Origin: a virus
Virus record (IMG/VR): IMGVR_UViG_3300042399_001709
Coordinates: 1-64,000 of that record
Reading direction: 5' to 3' (one strand)
Length of the DNA stretch: 64,000 nucleotides
Part shown: positions 58,745 through 58,850 of the stretch, one piece after another
How the letters are laid out: each line of letters begins with the position of its first letter
Numbering within the stretch: the stretch's first letter is position 1
Notes under the pieces: model-generated
Told to the model about the DNA's origin: nothing
What the model saw: the letters and a program-made list of their open reading frames with translations, nothing else
Databases searched by the model: none
Position numbers and translations under genes: made by a program

Positions 58745-58816
58745 TGGTGGAGCCGGGCGGGAGTTACACCCGCCGTTACCCTCAGGCATGATGACCTTTG
58801 GCGTTTACTCGGCCCC
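58745..58816 (-). ncRNA. 72-nt tRNA-Ala/tmRNA TLD-like RNA ending in CCA
   Basis: GGGGCCG/CGGCTCC acceptor stem with G3-U70, A discriminator and CCA; T-arm GGCGGG-TGTAACT-CCCGCC; no D stem or canonical anticodon arm; own promoter. Confidence 0.75.
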
Positions 58817-58821
58817 AGGGG

Positions 58822-58850
58822 ACTATAACACGCTATAGCCCGAGCGTCAC
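58822..58850 (-). promoter_or_regulatory. Promoter of the tRNA-like RNA/FmdB unit
   Basis: GTGACG-17 nt-TATAGT with TG extension, ending 5 nt before G1 of the RNA. Confidence 0.7.

Follow-up and report, generated by a model that had tools for sequence, protein, structure and literature searches.

A conserved 72-nucleotide tRNA-like RNA gene with an alanine-type acceptor in a phage genome, possibly related to tag-less mini-tmRNAs

The window analysed here, a stretch of 64,000 nucleotides (nt), comes from an uncultured lake-water phage and comprises positions 1-64,000 of the IMG/VR virus record IMGVR_UViG_3300042399_001709, which counts 80,783 bases in full and is rated 92% complete. A tRNA-like RNA of 72 nt lies on its minus strand at 58816..58745, running from G1 to an encoded CCA. 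An initial annotation had described it as a promoter-driven miniature of transfer-messenger RNA (tmRNA) with an alanine acceptor, and the minus-strand sequence quoted there matched exactly on re-reading. The element is composed of the following parts:

58810..58816, minus strand: 5′ strand of the acceptor stem, GGGGCCG, holding the G3 of the G3:U70 pair; invariant in 9/9 variants
58805..58809, minus strand: connector AGUAA (5 nt) in the place of the D arm; unpaired in the fold, variable at three of its five positions, without GG
58778..58804, minus strand: central hairpin (nt 13-39) of about ten layers, with covariation; apical GGUCAUCAUGC invariant
58775..58777, minus strand: connector AAC (3 nt), 5′ of the T arm; invariant
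58756..58774, minus strand: T-like arm with a stem of 6 base pairs (bp), GGCGGG/CCCGCC, and the loop UGUAACU; compensatory changes
58745..58755, minus strand: 3′ strand of the acceptor stem, CGGCUCC, with the discriminator A and CCA; invariant in 9/9 variants

In the minimum-free-energy fold, a 7-bp acceptor stem reached from G1-C68 to G7-C62, with G3:U66 as the equivalent of G3:U70. The rest of the molecule consisted of an irregular central hairpin, a 6-bp stem capped by a 7-nt loop, and an A-CCA end that stayed single-stranded. The acceptor stem with G3-U70 and the 6-bp T-stem of the initial annotation were thus both present, as were its unpaired D region (the 5-nt connector) and its short irregular hairpin (nt 13-39). 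Its claim that the anticodon arm and the mRNA domain are missing also held: the apical loop of the central hairpin has 6 or 8 nt, a 7-nt anticodon loop cannot be drawn, and there is no tag frame. The fold energy was −32.1 kcal/mol (z = −2.2), and 4 of 200 shuffled sequences were equally stable.

A promoter scan placed GTGACG-17-TATAGT on the minus strand at 58850..58822, with a TG upstream of the second hexamer. The distance from TATAGT to G1 is 5 nt, as had been annotated. The features on either side of the RNA are:

59204..58833, minus strand: upstream open reading frame (ORF), whose TAG stop (58835-58833) falls within the promoter spacer
58845..58850, minus strand: −35-like hexamer GTGACG, within the last codons of the upstream ORF (promoter scan)
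58822..58830, minus strand: extended −10 element TGT-TATAGT (promoter scan); TGnTATAGT is invariant in relatives with the same context
58739..58744, minus strand: Shine-Dalgarno sequence AAGGAG of the Zn-ribbon gene, abutting the CCA (58747-58745)
58509..58733, minus strand: FmdB-like Zn-ribbon ORF of 74 amino acids (aa), a neighbour outside the RNA; Pfam Zn_ribbon_8 (37.9 bits, cut-off 34.4) and PHROG 1076

Among relatives, the −35-like hexamer reads GTGACG or GTAACN, a conservation for which coding constraint could account. The stop-codon region 5′ of TGnTATAGT and the 5-6 nt 3′ of it vary. The ribosome-binding site (RBS) that had been placed immediately after the CCA was found there, with AAGGAG at 58744-58739 and the ATG at 58733. 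Sequestration of this Shine-Dalgarno sequence by the RNA was considered and rejected, as a fold of the 127-nt leader leaves AAGGAG largely unpaired, with its outer two bases in a weak 3-bp stem. TGnTATAGT or TGnTATACT boxes stand exactly 6 nt 5′ of an ATG in the window and at the loci L018 and L020-L026 (contigs and loci are given by working labels), which suggests leaderless mRNAs in this phage group. Within the window, such apparent leaderless starts are seen at 55142(−), where TGTTATAGT, the same box as at the RNA promoter, is followed by 6 nt and ATG, and at 47706(+), where TGGTATACT is followed likewise. Because of these two starts, transcription of the RNA is expected to begin at G1 or G2.

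The shape of a single sequence is weak evidence. A scan for structures made of a 7-bp stem adjoining a hairpin (5-6 bp, loop of 7 nt) and ending in N-CCA returned a single site in the window, the element at 58745-58816. Among 100 dinucleotide shuffles, 79 had one site or more by the same scan (mean 1.35), and 4 did so when G3:U70 and A73 were demanded. Since the shape alone arises in shuffles, the case for a real RNA rests on conservation and covariation, and it is the comparison with relatives that carries it.

Besides the window's record, the element was present in nine IMG/VR contigs and in eight from metagenomes, of which one is chimeric; nine distinct 72-nt variants resulted. Its identity to relatives was 88-100%, versus 74-93% for the upstream ORF and 80-89% for the fmdB gene, and in 8/8 comparisons it was better conserved than both flanking genes. 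Standard pairs occupied 91.3% of the pair cells over the nine variants; none of 500 shuffles scored as high, and slid controls reached 30-57%. Three pairs changed on both sides, giving the covariation for which the initial annotation had proposed to look: 45:59 (CG, AU, UA) and 46:58 (GC, AU, GU) in the T stem, and 20:33 (GC, AU, CG) in the hairpin. The hairpin pairs 17:36 and 21:32 shifted to G.U in some variants. The acceptor stem is invariant and so gives no information on pairing, its G.U never having turned to G-C in the nine variants. The apical GGUCAUCAUGC and the GGGUAAC motif were invariant in 9/9 although the adjoining stems change, and the T-like loop was UGNAACU throughout, with N being U, A or C. 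Judged by this comparison, the 72-nt RNA is a real, conserved and selected RNA gene with its own promoter.

The element might instead be a decayed tRNA-Ala pseudogene, a remnant of a phage attachment (att) site or a chance fold. The shuffles lend this some credit, with the generic shape in 79/100 and the alanine type in 4/100, as does an acceptor stem equal to that of many phage tRNA-Ala (54 among 110 listed matches, see below). It is, however, largely refuted and very improbable in view of purifying selection with compensatory changes, the presence of both acceptor strands and the conserved promoter. The att-site version, which the initial annotation had named as a way to fail, also disagrees with the lack of a tyrosine integrase (Phage_integrase) match in the 92%-complete record and with a 26-nt degenerate element pattern that had 0 matches in 185,579 species genomes. 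The features of an attP core were accordingly not found.

Coding readings were rejected as well. A 96-aa ORF passing through the element (58977..58687) is ruled out by an extra spacer base in L010, and the frame from an internal ATG ends after 7 codons in the variants with UGAAACU. No stretch of at least 12 nt in the rest of the genome is complementary to the RNA, as a primer would have required. Leaving the acceptor stem free in the search pattern brought no further members from viral contigs and none from genome contigs, and blastn of the 900-nt region against the phage GenBank collection gave no match. A 22-nt pattern had 30 metagenome matches, 22 of them chance occurrences in coding sequence, mostly a response-regulator motif. 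In the metagenome contig L188 (1..1540), a coding sequence like that of a response regulator is fused at a common 22-mer to the 3′ two-thirds of an L180-type element; the contig is probably an assembly chimera.

The metagenome contig L180 holds a copy that is 82% identical and has a different gene setting. There, G1 is the G of the upstream ORF's TAG, no promoter lies 5′ of the element, and downstream of it come a TGCTAATAT promoter and a MazG gene (42.5 bits). Beyond these lies a gene with 39% identity to the window ORF 58241..57108, which makes L180 a distant relative from the same phage group. Its T stem has two double-compensated pairs, and the internal loop of its hairpin is fully paired. 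In remoter fmdB relatives (61-67% protein identity) the element was absent, and nine of 11 element-free loci (L018, L020-L026) have a terminator, TGnTATACT, 6 nt and ATG in its place. Neither the family model nor the Rfam tmRNA model had a match (0/5 each) in five whole records from such relatives, of which one is 100% complete. The element is thus optional, has changed neighbours and is absent from remoter relatives, and is therefore a movable gene rather than an fmdB-specific leader. These findings disfavour the suggestion of the initial annotation that it serves as an RNA-processing signal for fmdB, as the L180 copy precedes a MazG promoter and follows the stop of another ORF.

A more general role in cis would be that of a 5′ leader or punctuation mark, which shields the 5′ end of the mRNA or directs RNase P or 3′ processing, the released RNA being functionless. 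The element does always sit tightly between genes: its CCA abuts the Shine-Dalgarno sequence in the window, its G1 overlaps a TAG in L180, and two RNAs described below lie between a stop codon and an RBS (L099) or have their CCA directly 5′ of GGAGG (L146). We nevertheless consider this role distinctly unlikely. G3:U70, A73 and the invariant loop are needless for stability or RNase P, yet they do not vary; the downstream gene (fmdB or MazG) and the position relative to promoters differ; the 97-nt relatives bear a terminator-like hairpin of their own; and the closest element-free fmdB relatives use a leaderless start.

Alanine identity in bacteria is given in Table 1 of PMC9976931 as A73, G2-C71, G3.U70 and G4-C69, plus G20 in the core. 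All four acceptor-branch determinants were present and invariant in the nine variants, so that the alanine acceptor of the initial annotation is backed by the full bacterial acceptor-branch set. Passages in PMC9976931 and PMC11392972 report that AlaRS alanylates minihelices, which resemble the 72-nt RNA in their coaxial acceptor and T stems, G3:U70 and A73. This combination is known as the smallest unit that accepts alanine. Those substrates are 12-bp laboratory constructs; the RNA occurs in nature as a gene, has 13 bp and carries a conserved hairpin in addition. The RNA is probably alanylated by the AlaRS of the host.

Phage RNAs of comparable build are represented in the published work that we searched by a single tag-less tmRNA, that of Mycobacterium phage DS6A, which PMC4131195 gives one sentence and a table entry as 'TLD only' (tRNA-like domain); the supplementary tables of the tmRNA database may list more. 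We located it at JN698994 28478-28556, unannotated in the GenBank record, where it matched the Rfam tmRNA model with 34.7 bits (E 1e-12). The DS6A and 72-nt RNAs are both phage-encoded, intergenic and about 70-80 nt long, with an identical acceptor (GGGGCCG/CGGCUCC and A73), a T arm, neither anticodon arm nor tag frame, and a closed helix where helix 2 of tmRNA begins. They differ in that DS6A has a tmRNA D-loop (..UGGUGGUCGAC), a T stem of 5 bp with the loop UUCGAUU and GCAC ahead of this arm, and no encoded CCA, versus the 5-nt connector, UAAC, the 6-bp T stem with UGUAACU and the encoded CCA of the 72-nt RNA.

Viral sequences were searched with the acceptor pattern GGGGCCG...CGGCUCCACCA, a single acceptor variant, which matched at least 115 stretches. 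Among the listed matches, 110 were scanned (L051-L160); ARAGORN called 54 of these tRNA-Ala and one tRNA-Asp, 32 shorter ones were uncalled and by inspection mostly chance in GC-rich coding sequence, and 23 uncalled ones had at least 71 nt. At least ten minis of 71-83 nt, DS6A included, matched Rfam tmRNA with 34.7-67.1 bits. Nine of them lie on IMG/VR contigs:

L133, 154-233, minus strand: mini, Rfam tmRNA 67.1 bits
L064, 2135-2214, minus strand: mini, Rfam tmRNA 65.1 bits
L061, 3255-3333, minus strand: mini, Rfam tmRNA 64.7 bits
L146, 1566-1636, plus strand: mini, Rfam tmRNA 59.4 bits
L069, 187-266, minus strand: mini, Rfam tmRNA 54.5 bits
L137, 1287-1364, plus strand: mini, Rfam tmRNA 47.9 bits
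L093, 558-633, plus strand: mini, Rfam tmRNA 46.0 bits
L129, 9445-9517, minus strand: mini, Rfam tmRNA 41.1 bits
L063, 1045-1120, minus strand: mini, Rfam tmRNA 38.2 bits

These nine share with the 72-nt RNA the size class and the acceptor stem GGGGCCG, and they often sit tight against the RBS of the next gene. Unlike it, they keep GG..GAC, GGAC or GCAC, and UUCGAUU, and score 38.2-67.1 bits with Rfam; several have an internal AAAGCCGAAGCG-like loop that is absent from the 72-nt RNA. A sizeable class of phage mini-tmRNAs thus exists whose members are recognised by the standard Rfam model, which misses the 72-nt RNA. The class is larger than the nine found, one acceptor variant having been scanned. 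On another contig, L068 (2975-3119, minus strand), ARAGORN called a 'tmRNA' of 145 nt, whose 31-aa tag is implausible. The 65 nt at its 3′ end resemble a tag-less mini (UCGAC..GCAA tetraloop..GCAC, T-loop GUCAGUA), which Rfam misses at E ≤ 0.01.

Two further subfamilies have the same 6-bp T stem as the 72-nt family, and Rfam tmRNA misses both:

L099, 4831-4906, minus strand, and L107, 6071-6146, plus strand: 76-nt subfamily, T-loop GGCAGCU
L257, 700-796, minus strand; L258, 2950-3046, plus strand; L259, 3973-4069, plus strand; L260, 1710-1806, minus strand: 97-nt subfamily, loop UGCAACU

With our family model R2, the 76-nt subfamily scored 44.9 bits and the 97-nt subfamily 44.9-52 bits, compared with 24-29.5 bits for canonical minis and about 23 for tRNA-Ala. 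The 97-nt form has the same acceptor stem, with ..GGAC before and GAAC after a long helix whose apical loop of 26 nt is rich in pyrimidines (CCCUCACCUCUCUCCUC-like); it is followed by a terminator-like hairpin. The AAC before the T arm is also found in the Rfam-positive L093, the canonical minis having GGAC or GCAC. L099, L259, L068 and L131 were further non-matches to RF00023. In the 76-nt subfamily, the element stands between a stop codon and the RBS of a very basic 41-aa ORF; in L093, a canonical mini is followed by a 41-aa basic ORF (L093:652-774, plus strand) whose start, MP.VGKK.Y.YT, is that of the ORF in L099. The N-termini of the two proteins are identical at 10/15 residues (E 8e-6, a single comparison). 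L099, L107 and L093 may hold a cassette of an RNA and a small protein.

The T arm was compared with those of bacterial RNAs by scanning the 185,579 species genomes for a 6-bp stem with the loop UGNAACU, directly followed by an NNNCUCC-A end. Of 59 matches, 11 had some 7-bp complement 45-419 nt upstream. Seven had a credible acceptor partner; all seven were genuine tmRNAs and none a tRNA-Ala. The other four (L203, L215, L237, L252) were judged to be chance, three because they lack a tRNA- or tmRNA-like 5′ start; L252, whose partner lies 419 nt away, was counted with them uninspected. The seven are:

L206, 4293-4645, minus strand: tmRNA with this T-arm type (scan)
L211, 1257-1610, plus strand: tmRNA with this T-arm type (scan)
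L226, 5168-5520, minus strand: tmRNA with this T-arm type (scan)
L230, 506-861, minus strand: tmRNA with this T-arm type (scan)
L236 (no coordinates): tmRNA with this T-arm type (scan)
L241, 641-993, plus strand: tmRNA with this T-arm type (scan)
L243, 4211-4566, minus strand: tmRNA with this T-arm type (scan)

They belong to Bacillota species known as metagenome-assembled genomes (MAGs), are 353-356 nt long, were called by ARAGORN in 7/7 cases with tags such as ANDNYALAA, and scored 173.5-194.3 bits with Rfam (three tested). In their T arm, UGCAACU replaces UUCGAUU, and Rfam aligns it as a 5-bp stem with two inserted bases. Like the 72-nt RNA they have G3:U70, A73, CCA and six G-C T-arm pairs, and UGCAACU is the loop of L180; they differ from it in being full-length, with tag frames and a normal D-loop (AGUUAGGUUCGAC).

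The order of parts in the 72-nt RNA (acceptor, connector ending in AC, helix, NAAC, T arm, acceptor, A, CCA) parallels the Rfam tmRNA consensus (acceptor, ..GG..UCGAC, helix, GGAC, T arm). That consensus also agrees in layout with the E. coli tmRNA 3′ end quoted in the initial annotation. The acceptor features of tmRNA (G3:U70, A73 and 3′ CCA) are present and invariant in 9/9 variants, and the T arm is stacked on the acceptor, with a loop that is non-canonical but occurs in the seven genuine tmRNAs. A helix leaves the core at the position of tmRNA helix 2, the anticodon arm is absent, and a tRNA cloverleaf with D arm and anticodon arm was not found. The layout, the T-arm type and the 76-nt and 97-nt intermediates suggest kinship with tmRNA. 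A comparable loss of the tag frame with retention of the tRNA-like domain is described in PMC11915505 for organellar tmRNAs that lack the coding sequence (CDS), such as the Mallomonadaceae plastid form of about 65 bp and mitochondrial tmRNA, which that paper holds to be still SmpB-acting. Those are organellar and were assigned by homology to full neighbours, and the likeness to the 72-nt RNA is one of description only. Our tentative reading, which we hold possible and just short of probable, is that the 72-nt RNA is the product of a small-RNA gene in its own right, belongs to the phage tag-less mini-tmRNA class as a divergent member and competes with tmRNA.

Several observations weigh against this. 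The stem-less D-loop GG..UCGAC and the GGAC or GCAC before the T arm were not found; the D-loop analogue has 5 nt and no GG, the T arm is preceded by UAAC, and the T-loop has G at position 55 and N at position 56. No detector recognised the RNA: a permissive Rfam search of 351 nt gave no tRNA (RF00005) or tmRNA (RF00023) at E ≤ 10, its only match being a chance microRNA (E 2.5); the Rfam tmRNA model had no match in the record; ARAGORN reported no tRNA or tmRNA in the window or in the whole 80,783-base record; and six ARAGORN modes, including mitochondrial D-armless, lowered-threshold and tmRNA modes, called 0/9 variants. Of the checks proposed with the initial annotation, these programs thus spoke against a normal tRNA without recognising a tmRNA either. 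A model built from 11 canonical minis gave tRNA-Ala 44-46 bits, above the 25.4-34.4 bits of the 72-nt family. The signal in common with canonical minis is therefore the acceptor and T stems only, and tmRNA is not picked out by profile similarity. Because the search patterns prescribed the acceptor stem, T stem and CCA, the likeness to L099 and L257 in these parts is partly built in. The link between L093 and L099 consists of 15 residues, with no other common ORF at E 1e-4. SmpB and AlaRS genes were not found in the phage, and neither was a WhiB gene. Finally, no host could be assigned from tblastn searches with three large proteins, whose only matches were partial and distant and fell in phages of unrelated hosts.

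The same detector results bear on whether the RNA could be a decoding tRNA-Ala without a D arm, of the kind seen in some mitochondria, in which the central hairpin would be an extended anticodon arm. The layout of acceptor, 5-nt connector, long hairpin, 3-nt connector and T arm is similar, and the hairpin of about ten layers would approach the length of a stacked D stem and anticodon stem. With an apical loop of 6 or 8 nt instead of 7, the mitochondrial and low-threshold modes of ARAGORN at 0/9 and no Rfam tRNA match at E ≤ 10, we find this scarcely credible.

The weak point of this mechanism is the binding of SmpB. Citing Mao et al. 2009, PMC4131195 states that tmRNA is strongly inhibited by a DS6A-like molecule, whether or not it can be charged, and that titration of SmpB may be the cause, and a statement in PMC11915505 with the same source places the inhibition of endogenous tmRNA in E. 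coli. According to the review PMC3968760, SmpB binding requires the interaction of D- and T-loops. Because the D-loop analogue lacks GG..UCGAC, binding of SmpB by the 72-nt RNA, which the initial annotation had envisaged, is doubtful. Its idea of a mimic consisting of the tRNA-like domain alone survives in part: message-less phage tmRNAs do exist, as in DS6A, but no tRNA or tmRNA model detects this RNA. The joint loss of D-loop and T-loop features fits an RNA that no longer forms the elbow, and a role that bypasses SmpB may be possible.

One alternative is an alanine-accepting mini-tRNA-like RNA that works outside trans-translation and whose invariant apical loop would bind a dedicated partner. 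It could serve as a decoy or sink for an enzyme with tRNA acceptor ends or Ala-tRNA as its target, such as a host toxin, AlaRS, the CCA-adding enzyme or RNase P, or as an alanine donor for a non-ribosomal transferase. The lack of any tmRNA-specific signature would agree with this, as would the apical GGUCAUCAUGC with GGGUAAC, which is invariant in 9/9 and has no counterpart in tmRNA, and the 5-nt D-loop analogue, which speaks against SmpB binding. We consider it rather unlikely, since no candidate partner gene was seen nearby, the neighbours being the Zn-ribbon gene, two PHROG 1574 paralogues and unknowns. In addition, no conserved protein partner was found downstream of the other minis, whose downstream genes have no common family; the apical loop is unconserved in the 76-nt and 97-nt subfamilies; and the T-arm type and intermediate forms indicate tmRNA. 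It is also conceivable, though unlikely, that the RNAs of 72, 76 and 97 nt are a class of their own, so far undescribed, of alanine-accepting minimal tRNA mimics in phages, in which SmpB binding has been given up along with the D-loop and the usual T-loop. Such RNAs would act by their charged acceptor end together with an apical loop specific to each subfamily, possibly as a decoy for host defence enzymes that attack tRNA 3′ ends or in a tagless rescue of ribosomes that spares phage proteins from degradation.

Under the favoured reading of a divergent mini-tmRNA, transcription would start from the extended −10 promoter at or beside G1. The 72-nt RNA would fold into a 13-bp acceptor/T-arm minihelix with a helix in the place of tmRNA helix 2, and host 3′ processing would free the encoded CCA. 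Host AlaRS could then charge it with alanine via G3:U70, A73, G2-C71 and G4-C69. By analogy with DS6A, the RNA would act in trans on the alanyl-tmRNA machinery of the host, most likely competing with tmRNA in trans-translation. If charged with alanine and able to disturb ribosome rescue, it would give the phage a compact means of acting against a core quality-control system of the host, and would offer a natural way to find out which tmRNA features are needed by SmpB, AlaRS and EF-Tu. With it, the phage class would extend to forms missed by standard tRNA and tmRNA detectors, and phage genomes may hold many more.

A link of the RNA to an RNase cargo, as the initial annotation had conceived, was not supported: a HicA-like match occurred in the tape-measure genes of two of four element-bearing records (all four at least 90% complete), both below the cut-off (13.7 and 14.2 bits versus 27), and was absent from the single element-free relative compared. 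In the window this stretch lies at 19050-19166(+) within a 4464-aa tape-measure ORF (Pfam HicA_toxin, 13.7 bits). The paper on AcrIIIA1 (PMC11662646) concerns fragments of host tRNA and tmRNA and was set aside as not relevant.

In sequencing runs, most of a 5-kb stretch was present in 18 DNA runs labelled lake water, and six metatranscriptome runs held 6-9% of its words. Four RNA runs yielded 11 contig pieces at a depth of 2-4, none over 58745-58816 and the nearest at 58587-58739, which is uninformative on the presence or ends of a small RNA.

Just downstream of fmdB, the window has two paralogous PHROG 1574 genes, at 56070-56882(−) and 57108-58241(−). The function of this family is unassigned, with a weak glycosyltransferase hint, and a homologue of one paralogue occurs in L180. 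Among the contigs that bear canonical minis, L133 has a type II hammerhead ribozyme at 2716-2781(−) (38.3 bits, gathering threshold 37), and int-alpA RNAs were found in L146 at 13429-13497(−) and in L063 at 3532-3597(−) (42.1 and 35.9 bits, respectively, versus 35.8).

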